DNA from: Vermamoeba vermiformis
Lineage: Eukaryota
Assembly (NCBI GenBank): GCA_045837725.1
Contig: JBEWZL010000208.1
Coordinates: 62,001-126,000, forward strand
Length of the DNA stretch: 64,000 nt
Direction: 5' to 3'
The stretch's first letter is position 1. Every line of letters begins with the position of its first letter. The notes beneath the pieces were generated by a model, which searched no databases, was not told the origin of the DNA, and saw only the letters and a list, made by a program, of their open reading frames with translations. Of this stretch, positions 6,376 through 63,708 are shown in pieces. Made by a program: the position numbers and the translations under genes.

Positions 6376-8351
6376 TTAGAACAAGGAGATCAAGAGCGAG
6401 AACACGGCAACAAGGAACGAGGCTTGAACAGCAACGCTAGAGTTGACATTGGAGCAGGTACCGTCCTCTAAAATTACTATATATGTTAGTACGATGCACG
6501 AGTGAGACCGTTCAAATTCGATATTCCAAAGTTGGAGGATCGAACGATCTTAGATTCGGCTTTGCAACTTACCAACAGAGATGGTGTATTGAGCACCGCT
6601 ATCAGTGTACAATCCGTAGAACTTGCGGTTTGTGTTCGCACCAGCAGGGACGCAAGCATAGTTAGTGCTGTAGGAGGAAGGAGTTTGAGTGGTGGAGGCA
6701 GCACCGCAGTCAGTGCCGTAAGAAACAAGAGCAACGCCACCATTACCGCCAGTACGACGAGCAACGACGCGCTAAATATGATAAATGAGTAAAGGTTGCT
6801 TTGTGAGGCTTTGGTGGGTTGAAAAAGTTGCCGGATGTACCTTAGGAACAGCGGTGGTGTCGTAAGCATCAGCTCCGTAGATTCTGTAGCCAGAGGAGAG
6901 AGAGTCGCTGAGTCTGTCAGCTTTGTAGACCAACAAGCCGTCTAGAAAAGGTGAGGTAAGTTAACTATCAAAAACCGAGAGTTGTTTGATGCTTGATCTC
7001 GATCTAATCGTTACTTACTGTAGGTAGCAGTGTTGAGGGTGTAAGCTCCCGAAGCGGTACCAGGGAATGCACCGATGATGGCAGTGGTAGCAGAAGTGCT
7101 GCTGCTGCACAAGGTAAGCATACCAGATCCACTCAACGTGGAATCAGCAGTGGTAGCGGTGGGGATGTTGTTGCTAGATAAATGAGGCAATTAGTGGCAT
7201 TCATAAGAGACACCAAGAGTAGTATTGCTAAGCAAATCCTGGCTCGCGTACTGACTTTTGAGCTAATTTTTGATGGTCAAAAAATGTGCGCCAGAAATTT
7301 GACGGGCAAATAGACGCGAAGAATGAGAGCTGGAATTCGCTCCAAACTTACGTTGAAACACCAAAAGTTGCGCCGTTAGGACCAGTAACGTCAACAGTGA
7401 CGAAGTTGCTAGCAGGGACAGACAAATCGAAGTACTTGTTGGTGTTGGCGGTCAAAGAGCCAGAGGAAGATTGGCCGATGGTCAAAGAAGTGCTCGAGAC
7501 TAATGCAATTGTTAGCATAAATACTGTTAAGTTAGGTGGAATGCAGGTAATCTTACTGGGTGCGGCAGTAATGGTAACAGGGAAGCATCCGTACCTAAAT
7601 AATTTAAATTTTGGTTAATTATCTGAGCTTTATCGATCATCAAAAGAATTATAAAAAGTTACCAGTTGCCTCCAGTGTAACCCCAGTGCTATTGAAAGTA
7701 AATTCGGTCAGATCATGCGTCCCACCATGTGTCACATTAAAATCGAATCACGTACCCATTGCATGTAGTAAGTGCCCGGGTCTTGAGTAATGAAAATGTG
7801 GGCAGTTTGAGACTTGCCAGAAGGGCAGTCAAGGGTTTTGAGCACGGTTCCGGCAGAAAAGCCAGATGCAGTAGCAGTTGTTCCAAGAGTGTAGTTGCAT
7901 TTGCCGTTAGGATGACCACCTCCGTTAGTAAAGTTGGAAACCAAGTTGCTAACGTCATGAATATTAGCAATCGAATCATGGGAGCGGATAGGAGATTCGA
8001 TTTTCCTTTCTGACCGCAAAACTTACGTGAACTTTTGCACGGTGATAGTAGTAGGACCCACGCCATGACCGCAAGGATTGGTGGAGTTAGCAGAGTTTTG
8101 ATTGTCACCTGTAAAATATTTAGTAAGTGGATTACAGGGTCTTGCAGCGTCGAGTTAATTTATTATTTTCAACGTTAAGGCAACATACCTTGGTAATTAG
8201 CAGCAACGGGGCCAGTTAACCAGCTAAACAAGTTTATTTTAGTTTCCGGTAACGTATTTATTGTTATCAATAAAAATTATTACCCGTGACCACTGACAAG
8301 GGCGAGTTGGACGGCAATAACAGCGAATACGACGATAATAGACTTATTCAT
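6376..8351 (-). CDS. Secreted, GPI-anchored LPMO-like (His-brace copper) protein with C-terminal beta-sandwich modules, about 11 exons
   Basis: MNKSIIVVFAVIAVQLALVSG|HGWLTGP...NPCG...GGGHPNGKC...YYMQWHWGYTGGNWYGCFPVTI; C-terminus NSSVAVQASFLVAVFSLLISLF*. Confidence 0.75.
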
Positions 8352-13614: not shown

Positions 13615-16600
13615 TCACGGATGAGGGTACATCGAAGCCATTTGATTAAATAGGGACTCCATTTTCTGATCGTTCTCCTCTTCGACTGCTTCGTTGAAAG
13701 TGTTTTTGATGCGAGTATCAATTTTTCTGCGGAGCTTCTGAATCGCGTGGCGCACTTGCAGCACTTTTGTTGCAGAAATGCACTCTTTCAGCCGTTTTTC
13801 CATTTCAAGCGCTTCGTCTCGAATCTTCACCAGTTCTTCTCTTATCGTTAAGGCATTTTCAGAATTTTGAAGCGGCAGGCTTTGAAACTTGGATTTCAAC
13901 TCTGTTAATTTGTCACACACGCTCTCTAAAATCTGGACGGAAATGTCGTCTAATGCAAGCAGTGGGTTCTGTTCTTCTGCTGGTGTCTCGGTCGGCTCCG
14001 GAGAAGGTTCGGGCAATGCTAGTGGAGTGTTGTTGGCGGGCATCTTCATTCGGGCAATGCCTTGTTGAGTCAGCTCAACACTTTCATATGCTATCATATT
14101 CATTCGAGAAAGAAGCAATGTCGGGACTGAATTGTCTTCGACATCGCCCACCCTGAGGATGTAATCCGTGCTGTCTTCTGAGGTGTAGATAATCATTGTG
14201 AACTCGAAGCACAAGCACATGGCAGACAGCATGACTAGATCGGGAACAACGTCGCTTGTACATTCTTCAAGTCGCTTAATTCGTTCGTCCCAATCGTTCC
14301 AAGCGTCCTTGAATTTTAATCCCATCGGGTTGCTAGGCTTGTTGCTGTTCTCTTTTAACCAAGTCGCCAATTTTCTTCGCACCATCTTTGTTGCAGCCAC
14401 ATTGGCTACTGGGTCAATCAGGGTAGGATTGCGCTTGTATAACTCGAAGGCAATTATCGAGTACAGCTTGTTGCTATCTTGGTCTGCAAAGTGAATCAAT
14501 TTTTGTCGCATGAAATGTTGCTCGAGTCTGTCTTGCAGTCTTTTGGTTGCATTTGTTTGCACTTCAGCATAATCTTCACCTTCGGAGTCAGTGCTTTCAT
14601 CTGTAAGAGAGCTATCCAAGCTTGCGTCGTCATCACTGCCATCGTCGTCATCGTCATCGTCATCGCCAGATGGGCTATGGGTCTTTGCTGGCTTTCTTCG
14701 TAGGAGTCGATCTCGAATTTTTGAGCCAAAATTCAGTAAATCCTGCTGGCTGGCCAAAAAGTACGCGTCAGTGACGATGTCGAGGATGAACCCCAGAATT
14801 CTGTACGGCAGCAACTTTGAAACGTATCCGAACATCTGAGCAACGATGCCTCCTTTGAGCACTTCCGTAACTGACTTTTTTGGATTGGCGATGCGTTGAA
14901 TGATCAACTCGGCAAGCAGTGCGATGGCAAAGCCAATGATTGCGGGGAAAGCGAACATTGCAGTGAAGCCTAGCTTGGCCTGAAGTGCGCCGTACAGCAC
15001 GTGATAAAGAACTTTTCTTGCAAGGGAGAAGAGTGTGCTGTAAAATGTCGCTGAAGCCGAATGTTGAGCCAAAAACTGAACTCTTTCGCCAAGCGAATTG
15101 AACTTGGACCAATTGATCACGAGGTACACTGAGTTCTGACGAATAGAAGCTAACAAGTTGCCCTTCACTTCAGACATAAGTATATCTTCGTAATACTTCT
15201 GTCTCGCTTGATGCTCTTGCTTTTGGTACTCCTTTTCGTTCGCCTTGACATTCTCTTCGTACTGCTCTTTCTTTTGTTGGTTCTCCGTGTCGACTTTGGC
15301 TTTCTCTCGTTGATAGTTTTCTTGCTGCTCTCGTTGTCTTTGATTGAATTCGTTCTGTGCCGCTTGCTTGCGTGCCTCATTTTCGTTTCTTTTTTGTTCG
15401 ATATGGCGAGCAAGCTGGGCCTCTGCCAAAGCTCTTGCTGCTGCTTCATCATTGTGCCTCGCTCCAGGTCTAGCAATCAGGTTGCCATTTGCATCGTACA
15501 CAGCTGCGTAAGCGGCACCTCTGCCGCCAAAGGGTCTTTTTCGACCTCTTTCTATTTTAATTTGATAAGACTCTCTGAATATGGAAGGGTCATCATTAAA
15601 TTGAAATTGGCCAGGCTGAGGTTGCTGAACGGTGTTGAAAACAGGCTGTTCGATGACGGTTTGTTGCGGAAGCGTTAAAGTCGGAAGCTGCGAGGAGACT
15701 ACGTCAACAATACGATTGAATGCACGTTGACTAGTATCGGTCCATTGATGTTGGCTTATCTCTTTCAATCTGTCAACGTTGCGTTTCATTGCCTCGTCGA
15801 TCTTGTTCTTCATCGCAGTTTTTTCCATCCATCCAGCCATGGCGGTAGCAACGCGTTCGCTTGCAATCGAAACTGCGCGCTGGAAGAAGAATTCATCGAC
15901 AAAGAGTCCTCGCAATTGTTTGTTAGTCAGGTCTGCAATCCCTTGCTTGATGTACCAGTTGAAGTTTTCGTTGAGCTTCTTATCCCTAACTTTTTCGATC
16001 TTCTTCTTGATCTTTTCTCTGAACTCGGCATCAAGCAAATTGATTGCATCGTTGTGAATATCTAGCGCTCTCTTCAAGGCATTGTTGATTTCGGTGTAAT
16101 TGCTTGGAATTTTAATTCTCTGCAGCGAAATCTCGATGGCGTCCATTAATTGATAGTACGTTTGCTCGCTGACGTGCCGCAACCGCAATGGCAGATTAGA
16201 CGTGAAGAACGCTTGAATGGCTCCGTTGTTATCGAGACTGTCCATGATCGAAGTCCAAATGTGATGAATGTCGGGTCCGTAAAATGGAACTGCAGTGGCT
16301 AGATAGGTGTTGACCACTTGGGCGAAGTTGTTCAAAGCCAGGGTGAATTCAGGTACGATGTTCTGCGCAACGTGCAAGTCAACGTCAATCCGAGCGTTAC
16401 ACGGTCGAGGGAAGGAAAAGCATCTAAATCGAATCACTTAGCATTGTTGCAATAGAATAGCTTAGCGATTAAAGTAAAACTTACTGACTGGGAGGTACCA
16501 AAATTCCTGTCCGATGAATGTAAGTACCAAGATTGTCCCAATTAGGTTCTTTGTCTCGTTGAACTAAATAGAAAGCAGTGCTCATGGCAAGGATCCGCTT

Positions 16601-17068
16601 CTTGTCCTTCAACATTCTGTCCAGAAATTCGCGGAACTTGTCCAACACTTGAAAAGTAGCTGCGAGGCGCTCCTTGAAACCATCCACTTTTCCTTTGAAG
16701 TTGTAGATGATGGCATTACTAACGCTGAATACCAGATGCAAAATCAAATTGTCGTGTTTGTCGTTTTCTCCTATTCCTTGAGTGTCGATAAACATTCTAT
16801 CAGGTTTGGCGGGGTCGCGAGAGGGAACTATGATGACAAAGATGCCCTTTGTTTGGGCTTCCGCACGGTGACCGGGAGCAAAAGCGTCGCATCCAGACAA
16901 AATGTTGAGTAAGGTGGACTTGCCGGTTCCAACATCTCCTATGATGCTAATTACATGGCAGCGGTTGGCCAATTGCAAAAAATCATGAGCTACACTGGAG
17001 TTGTATACCAGATCTTCATCTTTCACGACGAACGCGGCGGTAGACTTCCACCTCGGGTTGCCTTCCAT
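13615..17068 (-). CDS. GBP/atlastin-like large GTPase with coiled coil, TM segments and a degenerate OTU-like domain (2 exons; intron about 16437-16488)
   Basis: VISIIGDVGTGKSTLLNIL (G1), TKGIF (G2), FIDTQG (G3), LVQRD (G4, GBP/atlastin type), then RCFSFPRP; hydrophobic FTAMFAFPAIIGFAIALLAELII; DQDSNKLYSIIAFELY...LVMLSAMCLCFEFTMIIY...AYESV. Confidence 0.8.
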
Positions 17069-17582
17069 TGTTTCTAAATGATAAGAATTAACACAAAATG
17101 AAAAGACTTATTTATATTCTGAAATATCTCGTCAATATCTGAAGCGATAAATGGCAGAAAAAACGTTGATTTCATGAAATTATGTCAAAAGCGAATTGTC
17201 CGGTGCACAAAGAATTAATCAATGAAATTTAATAATGTGCAATACGCGGTGATTTGTCGCTTATTTCCTAAATTTGATGTTTCTTGTCCACTGCCATAAA
17301 ATAAATGTCGGGCTGCAACCGAAAAGAATAACACAAACAATTAATTAATGCAACAATATACAAAGAATTGAGATAAGGAGTAGTTGATTTTCTGCTTACC
17401 ATTAGCTAAAGTTGCAATGGCTTATAAGGTCCTAATTAGTCGGCGGAGTTTTTTTGGTCAGAGATCCGTAATGTTCCTTCGTAGTAACGAATTTTAGTGA
17501 ATAACATTTATTAGTATTAACAAGCACGTAACTTTGTTTTGTGGGTCTTTTAGTTACGAGAAACAGATGAGTCGTGGGTGTC

Positions 17583-23368: not shown

Positions 23369-24979
23369 TTATTGCTGCGGTTTGATGCATTGTAAATGAA
23401 AAATAAACGCTTCTAGTCCGCCGATATTTACAAAGTACTTGTACTTAGTTTTCAACTTCCTATTCAATTTCTGCACACTTTTCAACATTAAATTCTTTTT
23501 GCTCGTTAATAACACAATATTGCCCTCGTGTTTTGTGACATGCCACATCTCCGCTAACATCTCGACATACAACTCTGGATTCATTTTGTGTCGCTTGCCA
23601 AACGGTACATCTGACACGATACTATCAACACTACTATCTTTTAGGGTCATATCTAAGATAAAATCACAAGTTAGTTGTCGGATGTGATCTCAAAAGATCT
23701 CAACTTACGTGAAGCGTCCATTTGCATAACTGTTATCCTGTCGTTTAATTTCAGAGTATTTACATTGGTATTTGCCTGTTGTATTTGATTTTCATCAAGA
23801 TCAGAGGCAATAAATTTGATTGTTGGATCTGACCAAGAGGTCGCTATTGGACGAATTAGAACTCATACAGTCTATATTTATATAACCAGAACGCACCTGC
23901 TTCTAATAATACTACGCCATTGCCGCACATAGGATCCATCATTACTATATTTGGCAATTAGACTCAGAGAAAATAGAGCGCGAACAGGTACCTGAACCGG
24001 GCTTCAGATCTGCAAGTCTGCACATGCAATACGCTATTGAAGATTTCAATAAGCCCTTGCCTAGTATAACATTATTAATTGAGAATATGTTCAGGTTAAT
24101 TAATTAACCGTACCAGCATCGTTATAGCGCCAAGATAAAAGTTCATCGGTCAATGCAATTCCAAAAATCATTTCATCTTCACGCACGTGAATGTAGACCT
24201 CTAAAGTGTGCTTATGAAGATCAACAGGCCATTTATATTTGTCTATCAATGCGCCACCGATATATTTTGCTATGTCTACGCTGGATCCGTATTCGCCTTT
24301 TGAACTGACGCCTGATCGTTTGCAAGTGACTCTAAAGCGAATTTCTTCCTGAAATAAAAATAATGTTAATAATTTTCTTTCAAGCTTGGTTTATCTTACA
24401 TTTGGATGCAGTTCTCGCCAGATTTCGAGTGCGCGATCCCAGTTCCAATTTTTTGCTCGGTTCATTAGCTGTTCCAATTGTTCTGTAGGTGACTTATTTT
24501 CTGTGCTAAAATTTTTTAATTGATTTGGATCGAATTCACTCTGTTCTACGTGCACCAAGGAATAAACGCGATCGACCGCTTTCAGATCGCAAAGCTACTG
24601 ACACAAAAAAATTAATCGATGCCGAATTATTGTTTTAATATATCGTTACCTTATTTTGCACGTCATTAGCTTCGAAAATAATTTTGCCTCGTCTTTTTTC
24701 TTTCATAACTGGATGTAATTTCTCTTCCACTTCGTCTAACGCGAATGTTTCTATAAAATACCAATCTTAATATATGTGAATACACAAATGTAGGTGTACA
24801 TACCGAGGCCTGTTGATAAAGTCGCGAAATAAACCGGATTTGGCTTGCGGTTCAGTTCCTCAGGCTTTGTGCGTTCTTCAACTGATTACAGGCTTCTCCT
24901 TCTTGGGCTTATTTTTCTTAACATATCCATATTTAGGATTTGCTAGCTTTTTTTCCTCATCTGTTGTGTTTTGCTCCAT
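23369..24979 (-). CDS. THUMP-domain RNA m2G methyltransferase (THUMPD2/THUMPD3-like); 1-nt frame break near 24880
   Basis: YFATLSTGLETFALDEV; FRVTCKRSG; WPVDL; LLKSSIAYCM; MDPMCGNG (SAM motif); DSIVSDVPFGKR. Confidence 0.85.
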
Positions 24980-25469
24980 AGAAATGATAGACTCGACAAT
25001 TGAAAGATAGCTGAGTTAAATAGGCAACCAATTAAGGGTTTACACGAATATTTATTTTATACTGACCCTTTCTTATGGCTTGGTCAATTTTCTAGAGCGA
25101 ACGCCCTCTGTTGTGCGTGACACGAGCCAAAAGTTTTATGAAATTTATCAGCTTTTTACACACGAACATCGCCAACGGTTATTTAATAACAAGCTAGTGC
25201 AATACCAAAGAGCAGTCGCTATATCTATATATAAAGCGCATTATTTTGGTTTTACAAGTGTTTAATCGTGTTATGGCGGGCAAGATCATGGCCGAAATAG
25301 TCCAAAGAAAATATTAAATTAAAGGTATGATAATATCAATAGAAAAACTTGACGTCATATGTTACCTATAAATATATATTTATAGTTATAACATCGTGAT
25401 TTTTATTCGCACCAACCCCTCATCTCGTAAATTAATTTTATCTGACTTTTTTTACGTAGCTTCCTTCAA

Positions 25470-26844
25470 ATGCAACAGTCTACAGTCTTAAGTGTGGAAA
25501 AGAAGCGAAAAAATATTTACAAAGCCGAATCGGATGAGGAAGCAAGTAGATCTGCCAAAAAGCCGAAGTTTGTATCAGATGCAGCTTCTTTTAAATCATT
25601 AGACGTTCAGCCGCAAAGAAAACAAGAAATAGATATCAAAAATGATATAGAGTCTAAATATATCGATATTAAGCATGAAGGCGATAGTGAAGCGAACGAT
25701 TCAATCGCAGACCAGATTCAACAGATCAAACTTGACGAAGATCTGCGACAAATTCCGGATCCGAACCTTCTGCAGCTCCTTATAAAAATACTCAATGCTA
25801 GAAATATGGTGAATAAGGACTTAGCAGATGAATTGCGGTACCCGACAAGTAGAATCCGTTATTATACGACAGGATCGAAACGTGCATCCGGATGGAACCG
25901 ATTTGAAATGCAATTATTACAGTGGATGCATAGTAGTATTAGTCATATTAAAGAGGAGCATAAATACGCCACAAAAAACGAGATCCGTTTGCAGCAAGAT
26001 CCGATCGAAAAAGAAGACCAAAGTGAAGCGTTATCGGAGTTAGATGCTCAAATACAATCCTACGATACATTTGATACATTTGAACCGGAAAATTATACGG
26101 AGGATATGGAATGGACGAATACAAATGAAGAAAAGAAAGTTCAACTTTTGCCTGATTCTAATTTAACTCGCCTATCGACTGCCTAAATATATGTAAGCAA
26201 CATATAATTATATTAGCCGCATTGAACAATATTATTAACGAATTTAATATTATTAGGCTTGGATCCAACGAGCCAAAAACGGATCTGCGTCATTGATCCG
26301 TTGCCGACATTTACACTTGCATTGCCTCAGACTAATACTGGCCTTGAACTAGATTATACGTACATGCCATATTTACGACCTCCAAAGCCGAGCGAAATTC
26401 CATCAGCGAATGAAGATCAAGCAAGTCGATTTATTTATGAAAAAATGCTAGAGGCTTGGCAAGGAGATAATGAATTTCAAAGCGAAGCAAAAAAACCACC
26501 TTCAAATACACCAAAATATACTCAAGGACCGCAGCGAAATGGCGACAAGCCTAATTACAGGTAAATTCATTTTGAAATTTCTAGAAATTTTATTCGGATG
26601 CGTCTAACCTTTTGAACTTAGTGCTAAAGAAGCTGCGTTTGTAGTACTAAAAAATGCTGGAAAACCGCTTAGTATTCAAGAAGTGGTCAGACTAAGCATA
26701 AAACAAGGTTATTACGAGGACCTAAACTCGAAAGTCAAGACATTGGCCGCAGCGATCTATCGAGATATAAAGATAAAAGAAGATAAATCTTGGTTTGTTA
26801 GAGTTGGCGTTAACCGATATACCATCAATCCAAGCTTTAGTTGA
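25470..26844 (+). CDS. Putative DNA-binding protein: Cro/CUTL-like HTH plus C-terminal HARE-HTH; 1-nt frame break near 26163
   Basis: LIKILNARNMVNKDLADELRYPTSRIRYYTTGSKRASGWNRFEMQLLQWM; last exon SAKEAAFVVLKNAGKPLSIQEVVRLSIKQGYY...TLAAAIYRDIKIKEDKSWFVRVGVNRYTI is HARE-HTH-like. Confidence 0.7.
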
Positions 26845-34024: not shown

Positions 34025-35623
34025 ATGCGCGTTCAGTTGGCTGTATTGTCAGCCTTCCTCTTTGTCACTGCTCTCGTCGCTGGCGTTAATGCCACTTGCA
34101 GCGCAGGTGCATCTCTTGAAGTGACCAACCAAGCTGACTTGAATGGCGTTGTTTACATTGAGAAATTGGTCATTAACAGCCAATGGAACTTTTCTTTCGT
34201 TGAGGTAAGTTGCTTTAATTAAACAAATTCAGACTGGGATGTCATTGCAAATCCCACCACAAAAAAACGGAGATGCGCTCTTAGTTTCCGTTCTTTAAGC
34301 ATTGTAAACAGTGGACAACGTTCTATCGTATCCCGGATTCTTATTCCAATAGCGATCTGGCCTAAACTAACTTTTTTTGTGTTTTTAGGGTGCTGCTCTC
34401 AAGCTCGTTTTTGACGGATCTGATAGCGGATCTGTTTCTGCCAGCTGGTCTGCCGATAACACTACTTTGACCGCTACTTTTGCCATTGCTGCTGGCGGAA
34501 ACACTCCATCCGACGGCATTACTTATACCCCGCGCCCAAGAAGACAAATCATTTCTTCGGCCTCTTCAAACGGCATTGTTGGTCTTAACACCATTATCAC
34601 TTTGGTTACAGGTATTATATTGCTATGCCAATTGTTAGTTAATTGATGTCATCGGCGAAATTATGACGGGTCGCCGTGACATCCAAATTGTTTTGGAATT
34701 AGAATTCCCTTTATGGGCATCATTGTTTCAAAATTGCATTATTTATGAAATATTTTCATTAATATAGTACCATTGTACTATTGTTTCTAACAGTAAACAT
34801 TTGACAGGACTTTTGGTCGCCAGATCCAACAAGAGAGGTAATTTATTAACGTTAATTATTATTTTAATATACCTGGTCAACTTAATAACCAACCGCAATT
34901 GAATATGCGCAAGATACAATAAGAGAAATTTCCAGCGTTATTTGTTGTTTCCAAAGTTTTCAGAAATGCGCAACGGATCTTGTGATCTGACCCGATATTT
35001 CTTATTTAGGTCTAGTTATGCTTGCTGTTGCTTTCTTGGTGCTCTCTGTTACTATGGAGACTACTATGGCTCAAACTGTTGAATGCCCCAGCGCCACCAT
35101 CACCGCTACCATTCCTCGCGGTCTCGTTCGCAGGATCTGTGTGAACAACGTCGATGACTGCCAATGCGGCCCTGGTTTCTCTGGTGCCAACTGCGACCCT
35201 GAAGTTGTGGTCCCTGTTGCCGAACCTGTCGCTACTCCAGTTTCCACTCCTGTTGCTGCTCCTGTCACCGCCCCTGTGACCGCTCCAGTCGCAGCCCCTG
35301 TTACCCCTCCTGTGGCCGCTCCTGTCACTCCTCCTGTCGCTGCCCCCGTCACTCCCCCTGTTACTCCTCCAGTGACTCCTCCTGTTGCTGCTCCTGTTGC
35401 CGCTCCTGTTGAGCCTCCAGTGACCCCTCCTGTCACCCCTCCAGTTACTGCCCCCGTTACTCCTCCTGTGGCTGCTCCTGTCGATCCTCCAGTCACTCCT
35501 GTTGCCGCTCCCGTCGACCCTCCAGTGACACCTGTTGCTGCCCCTGTCGATGTCCCTGTTGCTACCCCTGTTGATGTCCCTGCTGCTGCCCCTGTTGATA
35601 CTCCTACTGGAACTCCAATGTAA
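34025..35623 (+). CDS. Secreted or surface protein with a Cys-rich/EGF-like segment and a Pro/Val/Thr/Ala repeat tail
   Basis: MRVQLAVLSAFLFVTALVAGVNA signal peptide; CQCGPGFSGANC EGF-like motif; (PVAA/PVTP)n. Confidence 0.75.
35212..35610 (+). repeat. Coding tandem 12-bp repeats (PVAA/PVTP/PVDP)
   Basis: About 30 degenerate CCN GTN RCN SCN-type units. Confidence 0.85.
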
Positions 35624-35687
35624 TGCGGTAACAAATGCGAACTATATAAATAATTTTGTACTATCAACAAGCCTTAACGCTTGTCCT

Positions 35688-42116: not shown

Positions 42117-45100
42117 ATGAAAATCGAACTATTCGTTTCGTTTTTGCTATTTTTTACTTGCTTGGCGCAAGCCGCGTTCATCGGCAACTTCGATCTGAAA
42201 AGTACCGATCTACGATTGAATTCAGAGGTGAAAGTAAGTATTCTTCCTTCCGTCATATAATCAGACAATATGGTTAAAATAATATTAGGCCACAATTACC
42301 TTCGAAGAAGCTCAAGTGACCGTACCCAGGTTGTCGATCTCGGGCACTGCCGATACATCACTGGATAGAATCTTATCTGAAGACTCTCAAGGCGTCATTA
42401 TTATCAAGGTATTATTTTAACTGATTTCTGGCTTTGATTTAATTTTAGTAAACGAAGGCACCATCCCTCGGAGTTTCGAGCGCCAATTCGTTTGTACAAA
42501 ATAGCGGCCTTTATTTAACGAGCGCAATAACGTCTGTATTGACTTCACGATTGAATTTGCCAAGCCATGCCGCTCTTGGAATTGCCGCACTGGGTAAGTA
42601 CCCCACCTCAACAAAATAAATTATGTAGGTGTCGTATCGTAAAGCTTATTATTATTTATAGGACTTCTATCGACGGTTCGCTCTGATTCAGCTTTCGAGG
42701 TTCAAGTACGTTTCAGTATTTACGTTTAAATTTAACCGTAATCGAAGATACGAATTTCCTTTTTTGTAGATAGATAACTTACTAAATTTTAACTATGTAC
42801 TATTTAGATTATAGTCCAATACCCTGCAGGATATCGATTTAACTCGATAGAATTCAATCTTGCTGATGGTTCCGTTGCATCCAGTCAACAACTGAACGTC
42901 GGAGGTCTTGACATTAATGTCGGTCAATCTGGCTCCGTTGACATGAAAAATGTTGCTATTGGCTCTAACGTCAATATCAATGCACCAGTATCAGTGACGC
43001 TCTCACAGATAGCAATCTCGCAGGACTCAAGTTTGGATGTGCAATCCAACGGTGATATCTTTATGTCATTCTTACAGGTGGGGAGTAACTCCGATGCAAG
43101 ATAGTTCATATTAATAGTCATGTATAGGGCTTCGAGTTTTACGGCTCTTATTCAGTAAAGGGCAATCAGGTGGATCTACCTGCCAATTGTTCGGGCTACT
43201 TCGCAGAACAATCTACGCACTGGAACGTGCTTCAATTCTAATTCTGGCTCGCTGAATGCCCAGTCGTCATCGGGCACTGTCACCATTCACTTCTTGACAG
43301 CTGATCAAGTCGAAGGATACTGCACAAACTTCGCGACAAGTGACTTCGTTCCACCGATGCCAGAAGTCACTCCCATCACAACTCTTCCCGCTCAGTCGTG
43401 GAATACTATGAACACTTCTACTTGGCGAGGAACTGCACGTGGTTACTTGGCCTTGCAGTCTAATCAAATAGCCGGTGTCATGACGGCCACAAAGAACTCG
43501 TGGAACAATCCTATCATGTTGTTACAAGACGACGGAGAGTTCCTGCCTCACGGACTCAATCCTAGCAGAAGATACAGGCTCACTTTCTCGCTCAAATTCG
43601 GTCTTGACTTCACTCCAAACTTCAATTTGACAGCTCGTATCATGGCGTACGATGAACTCAATACATTTGACGATAATGAGGTATGCTATTACTTGGTACT
43701 TTGCAACTTATAATGCTTGTTGTAGGAAAGGGGTATTGACTGGAGCGAGGATCCAAAAGACGGAACTGTTGGTCGTGCTTTGGTCGAGTCAGATCCACTA
43801 CCTTTGGACGGTTGGACCACAACCAGCTGGAAGACTTTCTCCTATGAGTTCACACCTTCAGCCATGTCCCAGCGAGCCTACGCTGCTGTGTGGATAAGCG
43901 ACTTCCCTGACACCACCGTGTCCATCAAGGATGTCGTATTTGAGGTCTTTGAAACTCCGTACTCGATCCCAAATTTCTACGATGGGCATTACCGTGCTGC
44001 CTACATCCCTACAATGCCAGTAGAACTCGAGTCTAATCCCCGACAAAACTGTCCGCACTTACAAGACGGTCTCAAACGTTGGGAAGACGCCTCGACCTGG
44101 CGTAAGTACCGTGCAATGTTGATGACAGTTCCTTGCATTAACACATTGTTTTTAGCGAACGGCGTCCCTGCAGCCGGATCGTCGGTCACATTGCCTGCCA
44201 ACACTAAAGTTTTGGTCGGTCCTTGTTCATTTACCTCCAAAACTCCTTTCACTGAAATCACTGTACCCGAATCAAGCGAATTGATCTTCGCTGACGCCCC
44301 CATTGACATGCACGTTAAAACTATTTGGGTCAATGGTGCATTGAGGTAGGTTACAATCTGTTAGCAGGCGAGGGCGAAGCTAACTTTGAACAGAATGGGC
44401 TCAGAGACATGTCGCTTGTTCTCGAAGATTTCCATTACCTTTTATGGTACTCGACAAGAGACAGCCAATATGGGCAAAGGAATCGTTGTCTCAGAAACAG
44501 GTACGCTAGATATTCACGGCAAACAGTACAACCCAACTTGGACTCGTCTTGCCGCACCTGTCTTTCCAGGTGACACACGAATCTACTTGCAACATCCCGT
44601 CAACTGGGAGGCAGGCCAAAAGATCATGTTGACAACATCAGGCCTCTTTGATTTGTACTACGACATGAACGAAGTGTTGACAATCAAATCAGTCAACCAA
44701 AAAGTCGTGGATCTCGTAACACCGGCACTGCGATATCACCACGCCGGTCCTGAGTACCAGAATGAAGTGGCACTATTGACACGAAGAATTCTGTTACAAG
44801 GTGCCGAGGACTCTGTTAGCGGAGCATTTGGAGGTCACGTGATGATCATGGGTGAAGGCCGAGTACGTGGCGTTGAGACGTTCAGAATGGGTCAAAACAA
44901 CACGCTTGCTCGCTATCCAGTAAGTTAATTAGCATACTATGCATCTGTTCATTTCCAAATATAGTAACCGTCTTTACAGTTCCACTTCCACATGATGGGC
45001 GTGGCACCCGAGTCATACTTCATGGACAATAGTGTGCACGACAGTTACTTCAGATGTTACACTGTGCACGGCACTTCCAACGTCACTGTCGCGAGAAATG

Positions 45101-47266
45101 TTGCGTTCAGAACTACCGGCCATTGTTTCTATTTGGAAGACGTGAGTCATTCGTACAAGCATATCTTTGCACAAATTCTGAATTTTCCTTATTTAGGGAG
45201 TCGAAGAAAACAACACCATCGAGTACAACTTGGCAGCTCATGTCAATATTATAGCCCCCATTGCCACTGATTTTGCACAGTTCATGAAGGATATGCCCGA
45301 AACACCAGATCGTACGTGACACTTTTTGACACCTGTCAAGCACGAGCTGACACTTCCAATTGATAGGTCACCTTCCAGCTGATTCTGCTGCGTCAGGATT
45401 CTATATTTCTAACGCCTGGAATATCGTGCGTGGTAACGCAGCATCAGGAGGTTGGGCTGGATTCGCTTATGTAAGTTTTAGCGGCTGAATTATTGACGCA
45501 CAAGCACTAATGTCACTGAATACAGCCACTGTTCAAAGAGCCCATGGGTCTCAGCAAAGGAACGGCCTTTGAAGTGCCGCCTAAGAACAAGCCTTCGCTC
45601 GTCTTCGACGGCAACACTGCTCACTCGTCAGGCGCGTACTGGAAAATATTTGCAGGCTGCGTCTATTCAGGAGGAAGTACGTACATATGTCACCTAAAAG
45701 CCTGCGCAATATTTTCTAACCAAATTATCTTACAGCGTTGTTTTACGATGATAACGGTGTTTTGACCTACAATGGAGGCCGAACAATGGGCGCTAGCGCC
45801 AAAGACCCGCAAATCTGGTTAGGCGGAAACAACTTCAAGATCGTTAACTTCACCATTACCAACTTGAAAGTGTGGTCGTGTGGTCAAGGTATCAACCATT
45901 GGGGCAACAACGTCTTGTTCCAAAACAGCGAAGTTTTCGACACAGGTCGAGGCATGACAATGTTTGGTCCTACATATGTTTACGACAGTATCATCACTGC
46001 TCGCACTTCTAATCCAATGGGCTACCTTAAAGTGGGCCAGCAAGGATGGCAGTTCGTAAGTCCTCGACAGCGATATTTTGACAGGTGTCACCCCTTATAC
46101 TTGCGACAAATCATGACACGTGTCACGCAAAGAATGATGTCTAATTTTTTTTTTGTTTCAAGTACGACGTGTGGAGCTCTGCCTTATTGAACAACGTGAC
46201 CTTCGTCAACTTCCACCGCGACACACCACCAATATCCGACCCGAATTCTGCGACTAACTGTTTGACTGTGCTGAACAACGGACCGAACCCTCCGTACTCG
46301 CGTAACACTGGCATTAGCGGCGTAGCTGATTTGCACTTTGAAAGTACGTGTAACATCTGTGCAACATTTTGAATGACACGTGTCAAATGCTAACTCCGTT
46401 TTGTCTTCAGATACCGATGTAGAAGTTCGTGTACAAATGACGAACGAATCGAATCGCAGAACATCAAACATTATTGACTTTGACGGCTCTTTGACTGGCA
46501 TCAGCCAGGGAGCTGTGGTTGGGTCAGATCAACCTTTCTGGAAGGTCGGCTCTGATTGCACTTTTCGCAGCGACTGGCTCGCGTGGGTCTGTCCTTTGAC
46601 CTCGGTAAGTATAAGCTATATCTACTCATATTCTTATCTTTCTAATATTTGCTTGTTGCTCAGACCCGCACTCAAATCAGTGTTGGCGCCAAGTCCGGCA
46701 GTACTGGTCTGAGCGGTACAGTTAGTCTTTTTGGCGTCGATAGCGAACTAGGTACTCGTACAGTCGAATTCAATTCTGATGAATATGGTGCCACTGGTCT
46801 TAATAGTGAAGGTTGGTACTTCAACTTCGGATCTGCCACGCCAAACCCGGTGACTTTTCTACCCGAAAAAATACCTCCCGGTTACAAAGTCATAGTTGGC
46901 GTGAGTTACCCTGCCGGCTCCACTTTCAATATATGCTTACGGAGTTGGTTGGGCGGACCCTAACGGTGTGTACACGAAGGTAAGTGCCTGGTCAACGTTG
47001 GTCAAATATTCGCATTTTTTTGAGAATTTCTGTAGGTTAATAGCATCAATGATGTTAAGAACACCTTGTTCTCGTATTACTTTGATGGTACTAACCTGTT
47101 CTTCTCGCTCCATAATTATTTCATCAATCCATATTACCACCATGAAGATCTGTATGGCCGTGGTGATATTATTTACGGAACTGATGGCCAAGAATCAGTA
47201 GTCATTATTAATGCTTCTTGCGCGCCTTGTAATGCTAATTTTAACCTACCAGCCAGTCTCAATTAG
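42117..47266 (+). CDS. Large secreted G8-domain/beta-helix protein (fibrocystin-L/TMEM2/CEMIP-like); 1-nt frame breaks near 43200 and 46960
   Basis: Signal peptide; WEDASTW-NGVPAAGSSVTLP...IWVNGALRMGSETC...GTLDIHGKQYNPTWTRLA (G8); MGQNNTLARYPFHFH; SVHDSYFRCYTVHGT; GHCFYLEDGVEENN. Confidence 0.9.
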
Positions 47267-60259: not shown

Positions 60260-61844
60260 ATGCTGTCTGTCGTACAACGTAATAAACAATAACATTCATT
60301 ATCGTAAATAATAAATCAGACACCTAAAAATCGTTTATAATGTGATCTTGTTGCGAGATAAATTTCTTAACAACCATTGCTTTAATAGAGATAAATATCT
60401 GGTCATCACAGACGACAAAGATGATACGGTAGACAAAATTATCAAAAAATTGCAAGAGTATTCGCTGTTGAAGGCCGTAATGATAGACAGAGAAATTGAA
60501 CCGCCCTCTGATTTCCTCAAACTATGCCAGGCTATGAATAGTCATCCTCGTATTGAAGCCATTGGATTCGGAAGCTCAAAGCCATCAGAATTGAGTTATT
60601 CATATTGTCGTCAGATCGCGGAGTGGATCAAAACATTGAACACGAAGAAGACTTTCAAACTGCTCCTTCAAAATAGAGAAGCAGATTATGCCAGCTGGGA
60701 GGTCATATTCAACACTATTAATGACAGTAAAGAGATTACTGAATTATTATTTGATTATCAAACTCAGTTCAGTAGCGTGCTAGCAACGTTTGTTACTCAA
60801 ACCATCAGATCTAACACCACTATCAAGACGTTGAAAGTTAAAACGAACGAAAGAGATACGTCAGAATCGATAATTAAGGCATTGATCGACAATAAGACAA
60901 TCACGAGTGTTGCGTTATCGAGATTGGATGACAACGACTGTCACGCAATTCAGACGATGCTGCAAACAAGCACAGCGCTACGATCAATATACATCCACAA
61001 TAGCTCGATCAAAGGTCATGGCCTTAAGCATATTTATGACGTTTTGAAGGACAACACCTCAGTGACATCGTTCGGACTTGGCGGCAACTCCCTCACTGAC
61101 GAAGGGTGTCAATGGATCGTTCAAATACTTAACGACAGAAGATTGAAGGAGCTCCGGTTGCCTAACATCAAATTGACGCCAGAAAACTCCACTATTATTC
61201 TCGAAGCAGTCAAGAACAATAGGACTTTGGAAAAGTTGTGTTTGTCATCGAACGAACTTGACTCCGTGGCGGCACGAATTGGCGAAGTCATCAAATCCAA
61301 TACGACGTTGAAAGATCTTGATTTATCGAGGTGTAACCTTCAAGATAAGATGGAGCTAATTGCCGCTGGATTGGTTGAAAATAAGACCCTGCGAATGTTG
61401 TCACTTGAATGCAACGATCTTCACGTTAAAGATACACTTGTAATATGCGATGCGCTGCTCAAGAACAAAGGACTGACAGGCCTGAATATACATGGATCAG
61501 GGTTCATTCAGTCTAACAGTAAGACGGTTTGCGAGACGGTTGAAAAGTGTAGACATTTGGTGGATGTTCGAGCGAATGTCAAAGGCTGGAAATTTGGCTA
61601 CGACCGCCAGTTGCGCATGGCACTGGAATTCAATTGTGCCCGACAGAATGCAGTTGTATTCAATAGAGTCATAATTATACTCAATATAGCACGAAATAAG
61701 CCACAGCCGTTGTTACCCGAGATCTGGGCATACATATTATCATTTATTGATACACCTGGCATTCATATCAATTGGAGCACTGTCATTAAAGAAGCCTTTG
61801 TGAACCCTCATCGAATAGATGTCGCAAAAAATATGAGACTGTGA
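60260..61844 (+). CDS. RI-like leucine-rich-repeat protein (NLRC3/CARMIL-type repeats), copy 1
   Basis: Repeats of NxTLxxLxLxxNxL; short first exon MLSVVQ (start tentative); C-terminal LLPEIWAYILSFI. Confidence 0.85.
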
Positions 61845-62056: not shown

Positions 62057-63708
62057 ATGGAATACAAAACGTGAGTGTGGATTTGAAGTTTGGGGCTCGC
62101 CCCCAAAATATTAATCTTCCTATTTTAATTAAAATAAAATTATTGTGCATTACTATTTTATTAAAGCATTAATTTATAAATATTATCAAAAGAGACACGT
62201 TTATTTATTTCTAACGGGTTTTTAGTGCAGATATTCTGACAATTACGGACTCAAAGGAGGCCGATCAATACGATATTGCAGTTAAGGAGCTGCAAGGCCG
62301 ACCATTCTTGAAGGCAGTCGTATTCAAAAGCAAAATCGAACCGTCTTATTCCGATTTCGTTACCTTGTGTCATACGATAGGCACTCATCCTCGTGTTGAA
62401 TGTTTAGGCCTAGTAGAATATCACTCGGAATTAAAAGAAGCCGAGACTAAGCCGCTCGCCGAGTGGATCAGCAAAACAACAAAGCTGAAAAAACTATGTT
62501 TCAAAGATAGACTATTATCAAACGAATGTTGGAAGCTAATGTTCGATACAATTAATAGTAGCACTTCGATAACGAGCCTATCATTCGATTATCAAAATAG
62601 TCAGCGATTAGGTTTTCAGCACGAGTTTAATGGTGTCGAGCACTTGATCCAAACCATCAAAACCAATACAACAATTAGAGCGCTGAGTATTTGTATAAAT
62701 ACGAAACCTCATCGATTAAAGCCTATTACTGCAGCTCTTTTAGAGAACAAAACAATCACGGATGTCAAGTTATCGAAACTCTTTGACAGCGATTGTAACA
62801 CACTTCGGATGATACTCCAGCAGAATGACAAGCTTAAAGCACTTCATATCAATGACAGTATGATTAAGAGTGACGGTGTGAAGATAATATACGATAGTTT
62901 AAGAGAAAACAAGTCTTTGACATCCTTCGGATTCATCGGAAATCCTGTCAGTGACGAAGGATGTCAGTGGATCATACGCATGTTAAGCGACACAAAGTTG
63001 ATAGATTTAACGCTAGAAAATGTTGGATTGACGCCAAAAGCCACGAGGTCAATCCTTCAAGCTGTCAAGTGCCATCGATCATTGAAAAAGTTGAGCCTGG
63101 CAAAGAACGAACTCAACTCACTCGCATCACTTATCTGCGATGTACTTAAAGTTAATACGACACTAGAAGAGCTCGATTTGACGAAGTGTAATCTACAAGG
63201 TCAAATGGAGATTATTGCGAATGGACTGAAGGAGAATAGCACCTTGCAAAAGTTGTTGATCGGCGACAACGAACTCCATGTTGACGACGTGGAACACATC
63301 TGCAGCGCCCTTCACGAGAACAAAGGATTAACCTCACTTAATATGTCAAGATCAGCATTCCTTCAACATAATAGTGGCCAGCTTTGTGCTGCGGTTGAAA
63401 AGAACAAAGCTCTCATTGACGTGGAAGCCAACGTGAAAGGTTGGATTTATGGTTACACTACCAGGTTGAAAAATGCGCTACAAGTCAACCGTAAGCATCA
63501 GAATGCAGTGGTCGTTGAACGAGCCATTATCATTCTTAACATTGCTCGAACGAAGCCACGACCACTCTTGCCCGAGATCTGGATAACAATATTCTCATTC
63601 ATCTCGTCTCCTGGCATTCATATCAACTGGGGTCATGTTATCTCGCAAGCATTCGTCAACCCAAATCGCCTGGACATAACAAAGATCGAGAATAAACGTC
63701 AAGATTAG
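62057..63708 (+). CDS. RI-like LRR protein, copy 2 (tandem paralog)
   Basis: Colinear with copy 1; first exon MEYKT spliced to ADILTITD; C-terminal LLPEIWITIFSFI. Confidence 0.85.

Follow-up and report, generated by a model that had tools for sequence, protein, structure and literature searches.

A predicted GPI-anchored amoebal protein of the LPMO fold with a putative histidine brace and a tryptophan at the axial position

Introduction

How an active LPMO differs from a histidine-brace copper protein that is inert is still an open question, in which the axial Tyr or Phe and a nearby Glu or Gln are central. In one study, the brace alone is said to give no oxidizing power, Tyr-Glu, Tyr-Gln, and Phe-Glu are the only pairs listed, and no second-sphere residue is universal among LPMOs; the same study places the axial residues of AfAA11B and ScAA10C at positions 141 and 185, the second-sphere Glu of AfAA11B at position 139, and a core tryptophan pair near the copper of AfAA11B (PMC12186267). 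Bim1 and LaX325 carry an Asp on a Gly-rich loop, and Bim1 does not cleave cellulose (PMC7529816); a GPI anchor is found in all X325 and also on AA9, AA14, AA15, and AA16 proteins (PMC8615602). A conserved Trp next to the copper has a precedent in the copper-handling proteins YcnI and CusF (PMC8424229).

Free-living amoebae reportedly use copper against their prey. In the literature, mostly open-access text without supplements, we found no LPMO-like protein from these amoebae and no natural LPMO with an axial Trp. Here we analyze a gene of the amoeba Vermamoeba vermiformis whose product is predicted to display an LPMO-type domain with a candidate histidine brace on the cell surface. Our preferred reading, which we hold tentatively, is that the protein binds copper at the surface and works as X325/Bim1 do, without being an X325 itself.

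Results

A transcribed and spliced gene of 11 small exons

The gene lies on the minus strand of the window, the 64,000-nt stretch of contig JBEWZL010000208.1 that was analyzed, and runs from an ATG at 8351 to a stop codon that ends at 6376. It encodes a 378-aa product in 11 exons, separated by 10 GT..AG introns of 57 to 178 nt (Table 1). The first-pass annotation had placed it at 6376..8351 with about 11 small exons, and both figures proved exact; all of the ORFs of at least 130 aa that overlap the gene are in the wrong frame. The GC content is 51% in the exons versus 21 to 42% in the introns, and the motifs VSG-HGWLTGP (the break marking the predicted cleavage) and QWHW...WYGC cross splice junctions, with GGGHPNGKC also present.

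Spliced contigs from three of four sequencing runs (X1, X2, and X4, belonging to three studies) show every one of the 10 introns as a joint of the predicted length, and two contigs, of 1264 and 1207 nt, each span the transcript. The RNA status of these three runs is deduced and not taken from the run record; since their contigs lack the introns, they can hardly be anything but RNA. Run X24, the fourth, consists of raw RNA reads and yielded five partial reads only, of 90 to 95% identity, which are uninformative on splicing. The same frame recurs in three independent full-length orthologs (P0001, P0002, and P0003, which are 86, 78, and 74% identical), the 78%-identical one being the closest named relative, from V. 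vermiformis. The gene is thereby confirmed as real and expressed. Pfam searches with six single exons returned nothing better than an E value of 0.08, and Pfam and NCBIfam searches with the three orthologs returned nothing significant.

The neighboring genes (Ras-family, AAA-like, and GBP-like) give no clue to function. On the minus strand, at 13615-17107, a GBP-like GTPase frame (PF02263, E of 2e-10) directly precedes an uninterrupted 940-aa frame of no clear Pfam family. On the plus strand, tandem intron-free frames of about 500 aa (60315-61844 and 62215-63708) look by eye like leucine-rich-repeat paralogs, and a large multiexon gene (43159-46190) has, again by eye, the look of a G8-domain/beta-helix surface protein. 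At 34991-35673, a Pro/Val/Ala/Thr-rich tandem repeat follows a signal-like start and a Cys-rich EGF-like piece; this segment is open on both strands.

Table 1. Coordinates of the exons, predicted domains, and candidate metal-site residues
Feature	Window position	Strand	Basis
Exons 1-6	8351-8284, 8223-8189, 8108-8027, 7948-7756, 7688-7663, 7594-7557	-	Frame and splice joints
Exons 7-11	7499-7352, 7173-7019, 6941-6841, 6771-6573, 6467-6376	-	Frame and splice joints
Predicted signal peptide, aa 1-21	8289..8351	-	Val at -3, Gly at -1; helix 3-19 in model
LPMO-fold domain (domain 1), aa 22-147 (126 aa)	7558..8288	-	Structure and profile alignments
Module 2, aa 148-248, PPC/collagen-binding-domain-like beta sandwich	7020..7499	-	Structure match
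Module 3, aa 249-353, second beta sandwich	6454..6941	-	Full-length model
Predicted GPI-type signal, aa 354-378	6379..6453	-	Hydropathy 2.5 over final 15 residues, uncharged, no cytoplasmic tail
His22, predicted mature His1	8286..8288	-	Aligns with first residue of LaX325, TdAA15A, AoAA11, and AA13
His74, mature His53, candidate second brace histidine, in GGGH	7912..7914	-	Profile alignment
Trp135, mature Trp114, at the axial Tyr/Phe position of LPMOs	7594..7664	-	Codon split by intron 5
Gly-rich hairpin, aa 129-134, in place of X325 Asp and AA11 Glu	7665..7682	-	Sequence register

Predicted termini and the two C-terminal modules

Two beta-rich modules and a GPI-type signal, as proposed in the first-pass annotation, hold on the structure model and on the anatomy of the sequence. 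The anatomy and conservation of the termini point to signal cleavage that leaves His1 at the N terminus and to a GPI anchor at the other end. Among 28 members examined, the residue preceding His1 is Gly or Ala in all 20 that have His1 (seven are truncated and one has Gln), and an uncharged hydrophobic C-terminal tail, matching the anatomy of a predicted GPI anchor, is found in 24. Read by eye, the omega site is likely Asn357 or Ser358. A single hydrophobic stretch lies at the C-terminal end, with no multipass CREST membrane domain and no match to PF13965 in the three orthologs.

Structure comparison relates module 2 almost equally to the ColH CBD (Z of 10.3) and to a PPC domain (Z of 10.2); residues 147-356 fall into a PPC cluster of the ESM Atlas (score, 0.92), and a bacterial PPC protein (P0032) is among the profile matches. 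As a unit, modules 2 and 3 superpose on the ectodomain of SID-1, SIDT1, and SIDT2 (Z of 13.6 to 14.3, 188 to 196 aligned residues, 11 to 12% identity; rmsd of 3.4 at the highest Z), and tandem ColG domains match the modules one at a time only. Module 2 has one Cys and module 3 has three, a distribution that is also that of the SIDT ectodomain domains; one interdomain and one intradomain disulfide are described for SIDT2 (PMC10272179). Unlike SID-1, SIDT1, and SIDT2, the present protein has no 11-helix membrane domain, and our family profile gave nothing significant at the SID-1-like locus of the same genome (L019; best E of 0.5). We treat this model-based likeness as a common architecture and claim no homology. 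The genome does hold a SID-1-family gene with a PF13965 match above the cutoff (contig C157, 51284-52551, minus strand; L016 and L019).

Fold and sequence kinship of the first domain

The structure models are those of the 86%-identical ortholog P0001 and not of the window protein itself, with a pLDDT of 91.8 for mature domain 1 and of 89 over the full length. The suggested comparison by Foldseek and structure alignment with the LPMO families and X325 yielded brace proteins aligned from residue 1: domain 1 superposes over about 120 of its 126 residues with X325, AA9, AA10, AA11, AA15, and AA16, and also with AA13. The top structural match is LaX325 (Z of 12.4, rmsd of 2.9, 120 aligned, 14% identity), tied with TdAA15A (Z of 11.7, rmsd of 2.7, 123 aligned); AA11 and AA10 structures follow (Z of 10.5, with 21 to 23% identity for AA11), then AA9 and AA16, and the best unrelated matches reach a Z of 9.2 to 9.4. 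In Foldseek, AfAA11B ranks first (E of 1.3e-5, TM of 0.69), and the best 10 matches are all AA9, AA10, or AA11. No LPMO chain among the 50 structural matches listed is as short as domain 1. A viral fold library gave generic beta-sandwich matches only, with TM to the query of 0.30 or less.

Sequence profiles single out AA11. The family profile matches AoAA11 at an E of 2e-8 to 4e-8 and AfAA11B at 1e-6 to 4e-6, compared with 0.003 at best for AA16 and 1.0 for AA15; the three orthologs alone match AA11 at an E of only 0.6. LaX325 is absent from the family profile matches, and P0019 alone likewise did not reach it by sequence. With the Pfam X325/Bim1 model (PF20238), the three orthologs gave no match at an E of ≤5, and the best family member scored 23 bits against a cutoff of 27. 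None of 25 members matched LPMO_10 (PF03067) at an E of ≤0.1, the three orthologs had no NCBIfam match at an E of ≤5, and three of the 25 members matched NF043005 (the SCE4755 family) at an E of ≤0.1 (best, 0.0012), with no convincing score. The SCE4755 family and AA16 (7ZE9) are thus weak matches, and their ESM Atlas features (0.85 to 0.88) serve as leads only. The Atlas cluster nearest to domain 1 has a length of 158 aa and is eukaryotic, with molluscs predominating and 36% of its members BIM1-like (0.88, also a lead only).

On the model, domain 1 thus adopts the LPMO superfamily fold, a beta sandwich that starts at His1 and carries two histidines at positions equivalent to those of the brace; this bears out the proposed LPMO/X325 fold (Z of 12.4 to LaX325 and E of 2e-8 to AA11). 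It has four conserved Cys residues (47, 79, 103, and 138) in the AA11 pattern.

The candidate metal site

A residue occupies position 22 in 24 of the aligned rows and is His in 23 of these; position 74 is His in 30 of 32 rows and falls on the histidine of HGG in three AA11 structures. These are the only conserved histidines, and they are the pair named in the first-pass annotation (the His after VSG, given the predicted cleavage, and that of GGGHPNGKC). His22 would furnish the amine and imidazole ligands of a copper ion. We also considered His49, His112, and His127 as ligands and rejected them, as none is conserved and His49 and His112 vary between strains. A protein that binds no copper, either through cleavage elsewhere or through a collapsed site, and that resembles brace proteins in fold only, appears very improbable: both the cleavage site and the brace geometry are predictions, but a small residue precedes His1 in 20 of 20 members, the two histidines are conserved and are lost together, and His1 aligns with the first residue of solved brace proteins.

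The closing motif QWHW...WYGC is present as described, although its key aromatic residue is the Trp that precedes the Tyr of WYGC and not that Tyr. In the profile alignment, the family W-Y-x-C lies ungapped over the Y-M-N-C of AA11, which places Trp135 on AA11 Tyr140/141. The structure alignments give the same register if residues are counted backward from where the last strand ends, on the assumption that this strand is gap free: residue 140 of AoAA11, mature residue 141 of AfAA11B, and mature residue 185 of ScAA10C (Phe185), as well as residues 187 of CBP21 and 184 of TdAA15A. We take CBP21 187 and TdAA15A Tyr184 to be the axial residues of these two proteins. Of 31 members, 26 have Trp at the axial position, 3 have Tyr, and one each has Phe and Val. 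The position of AfAA11B Glu139 is Gly133 here and is never Glu in the 31 members (Ser, 18; Thr, 6; Gly, 3; Asn, 2; Ile, 1; Gln, 1), the lone Gln belonging to a member that lacks the second His.

The Asp of X325 is presumably Asp122, and through that number and the strand register we equate the Gly-rich hairpin with the X325 loop. The window protein has neither Asp nor Glu within aa 119-147, which leaves the fourth copper position apparently open, as it is in the enzymes; a Gly-Asp is found on the hairpin in 12 of 31 relatives. Gln38 might serve as a second-sphere residue from another loop, judging from the alignment, in which 16 of 26 rows have Gln or Glu there. Trp126 and Trp128 (the W-x-W strand) correspond to the core tryptophans that AA11 has close to its copper. 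Since Trp135 is kept in members without a brace (the paralog on contig C28 and the P0010 cluster), it may be structural.

The open fourth site, together with AA11 as the nearest kin, makes a true LPMO or peroxygenase the main rival to a copper carrier. The protein would then found a new AA11-related family with an axial Trp and Gln38 in its second sphere. It would cut chitin, chito-oligomers, glucans, or further glycans, whether in the walls of prey or in the coat or cyst of the amoeba itself. We consider this reading possible, if rather unlikely. The AA11 match extends over the whole domain with both Cys pairs, the core Trp pair is that of AfAA11B, Foldseek returns AA9, AA10, and AA11 for its best 10 matches, and the Gln or Glu at position 38 may be weighed together with the report that second-sphere residues are not universal; yet the Tyr/Phe-Glu/Gln pair is missing, the domain is very small, and no known CBM accompanies it. 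The genome (43.3 Mb in 309 contigs), searched exon by exon with profiles, gave no match to PF03067 (LPMO_10), PF03142, or PF03552 and hence neither a chitin nor a cellulose synthase, which is a weak test. The data lend no support to the original suggestion that chitin, cellulose, or the cyst wall is attacked oxidatively: the axial position holds Trp, the AA11 Glu is missing, the domain measures only 126 aa, and, as weak evidence, these synthases gave no match.

Comparison with the described families

The AA11 proteins (AoAA11, 4MAH/4MAI; AfAA11B, 9EXJ/9HDG; AfAA11A, 7P3U) share with the window protein His1, the HGG histidine, two Cys pairs, and the W-x-W strand. Unlike them, it has Trp for Tyr140/141, Gly for Glu138/139 (mostly Ser or Thr in the family), and a shorter hairpin; and AA11 is fungal, whereas this protein is amoebal, with two PPC-like modules and a GPI-type tail. 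The family profile thus shows sequence homology to AA11 over the domain, but the axial Tyr and second-sphere Glu are lacking. With X325/Bim1 (LaX325, 6IBH/6IBI; PF20238) it has in common the small domain, the brace residues, and the Gly-rich hairpin, and its predicted GPI anchor would be a further likeness. It differs in having no Asp, in scoring below the Pfam cutoff, in having folded modules instead of a simple linker, and in the Trp under the site. The AA15 protein TdAA15A (5MSZ) is a near tie with X325 by structure, but the present domain is about 70 residues shorter and has Trp at the place of position 184; the axial Phe or Tyr of AA10 and AA15 is here Trp135. YcnI (DUF1775) and CusF offer an analogy only: both have a conserved Trp beside the copper site, and YcnI has an N-terminal His, but its site consists of one His and a Glu on a cupredoxin fold. 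By the features compared, the product is outside AA11, AA10, AA15, and X325, with the fold and the brace residues common to all, and its proposed unclassified status accordingly stands with respect to AA11, AA15, and X325.

Family, paralogs, and strain variation

The protein falls into a so far unnamed family, which comprises about 30 clusters and whose named members are amoebae. A HMMER search over 1.84 billion representatives gave 46 matches at an E of ≤0.001, compared with only 3, 3, and 8 proteins from word-based homolog searches. The 31 rows counted above comprise the 28 of these 46 matches that cover the closing strands of domain 1 plus 3 from the word-based search; the 18 left out are fragments, unspliced translations, and long proteins matching short parts of modules 2 and 3, of which 6 were read (3 are bacterial-type repeat or PPC proteins) and the others judged by length and matched range. 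A look-up of 30 proteins attached organism names to 2, one from V. vermiformis and one from Flabellula baltica (both species are Tubulinea), and the remaining relatives lie on short contigs of about one transcript in length. A pattern search of metagenome contigs gave 249 matches, none of which was confirmed.

Within the genome, a predicted paralog on contig C91 (about 24700-26490, minus strand; L002) is 42% identical and shares the architecture and all 10 intron phases; it retains both histidines and the Trp and has a very short hairpin. A further member on contig C28 (from about 19690; L021), whose gene model is likewise predicted from sequence, keeps the Trp without either histidine and has a 97% copy on contig C36 (L022), the two being either haplotypes or a recent duplicate. 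The P0010 cluster also lacks both histidines.

Differences between strains cluster in domain 1, at 7786-7883 and 8065-8071 of the window, and are mostly nonsynonymous. Eight nonsynonymous and four synonymous codon changes fall in domain 1, against none and eight elsewhere (Fisher P of 0.005, or 0.026 if codons 84-90 are counted as one event), in a variant table built from two runs (X1 and X4) with sites near exon ends left out. None of the changes hits a metal-site residue. Between species domain 1 shows no excess, the domain identities to P0001 being 83, 85, and 87%.

These data bear on the possibility that an LPMO scaffold serves here as a surface receptor or adhesin, which would mainly bind prey, a virus, or another cell and in which copper would be accessory or serve H2O2 production only. 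The histidine-less third family gene and the P0010 cluster fit such a role, as do the confinement of the strain amino acid changes to domain 1 (eight versus none elsewhere) and the likeness of modules 2 and 3 to binding modules. We nonetheless regard it as unlikely, given that most members keep both histidines (23 of 24 and 30 of 32 rows), that the excess is not seen between species, and that the variant table stems from two runs.

An equally improbable but farther-reaching conjecture is an undescribed, amoeba-wide LPMO family, active with an axial Trp, without the canonical Glu/Gln, and on a SID-1-like stalk, that would open up the walls or glycocalyx of prey inside the food vacuole; its Asp-bearing and histidine-less members would trace a path among enzyme, carrier, and receptor and link AA11 and X325.

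Discussion

We return to the reading that we tentatively prefer, that of a surface copper-binding protein. Signal cleavage would expose His1, which with His53 would form a histidine brace for a single copper ion, placed at the tip of the LPMO-type sandwich. The two PPC-like modules may act as a rigid stalk off the membrane, with the GPI anchor displaying the site on the outer face of the plasma or food-vacuole membrane. Since the Tyr/Phe plus Glu/Gln set of the catalytic LPMOs is missing, and with it the residues by which H2O2 is positioned in the LPMOs studied, and since a Trp would lie under the metal, the site would most likely capture or buffer copper. Copper taken up in this way at the surface or in the food vacuole might be handed on, for instance, to a Ctr importer.

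Several observations agree with a copper carrier. LaX325 is the top match by structure, 26 of 31 members have the axial Trp, none of the 31 has the AA11 Glu, 12 of 31 have the Gly-Asp, and the domain is very small; YcnI and CusF provide a precedent for Trp beside copper, and the predicted GPI anchor would be as in X325. Ctr-family matches above the cutoff occur at two loci of the genome, but neither adjoins the gene. On the sequence side, the hairpin of this protein lacks Asp and Glu, the domain is far closer to AA11, and PF20238 scores remain below the cutoff. A PF20238 search of the genome gave no match, but its control found nothing either, and the result does not show absence. GPI anchors occur on AA9, AA14, AA15, and AA16 proteins too, the core Trp pair is AA11-like, Gln38 offers a second-sphere option, and the axial Trp is shared by brace-less members. 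The copper-acquisition role raised in the first-pass annotation thus fits somewhat better than oxidative action, but the Asp of X325/Bim1 on which the parallel would draw is missing here.

The family offers natural versions of one small scaffold, with an axial Trp, with or without the X325-type Asp, and without the brace, which can be compared directly in asking what makes a histidine-brace protein an LPMO. It also places histidine-brace proteins, by prediction, on the surface of free-living amoebae.
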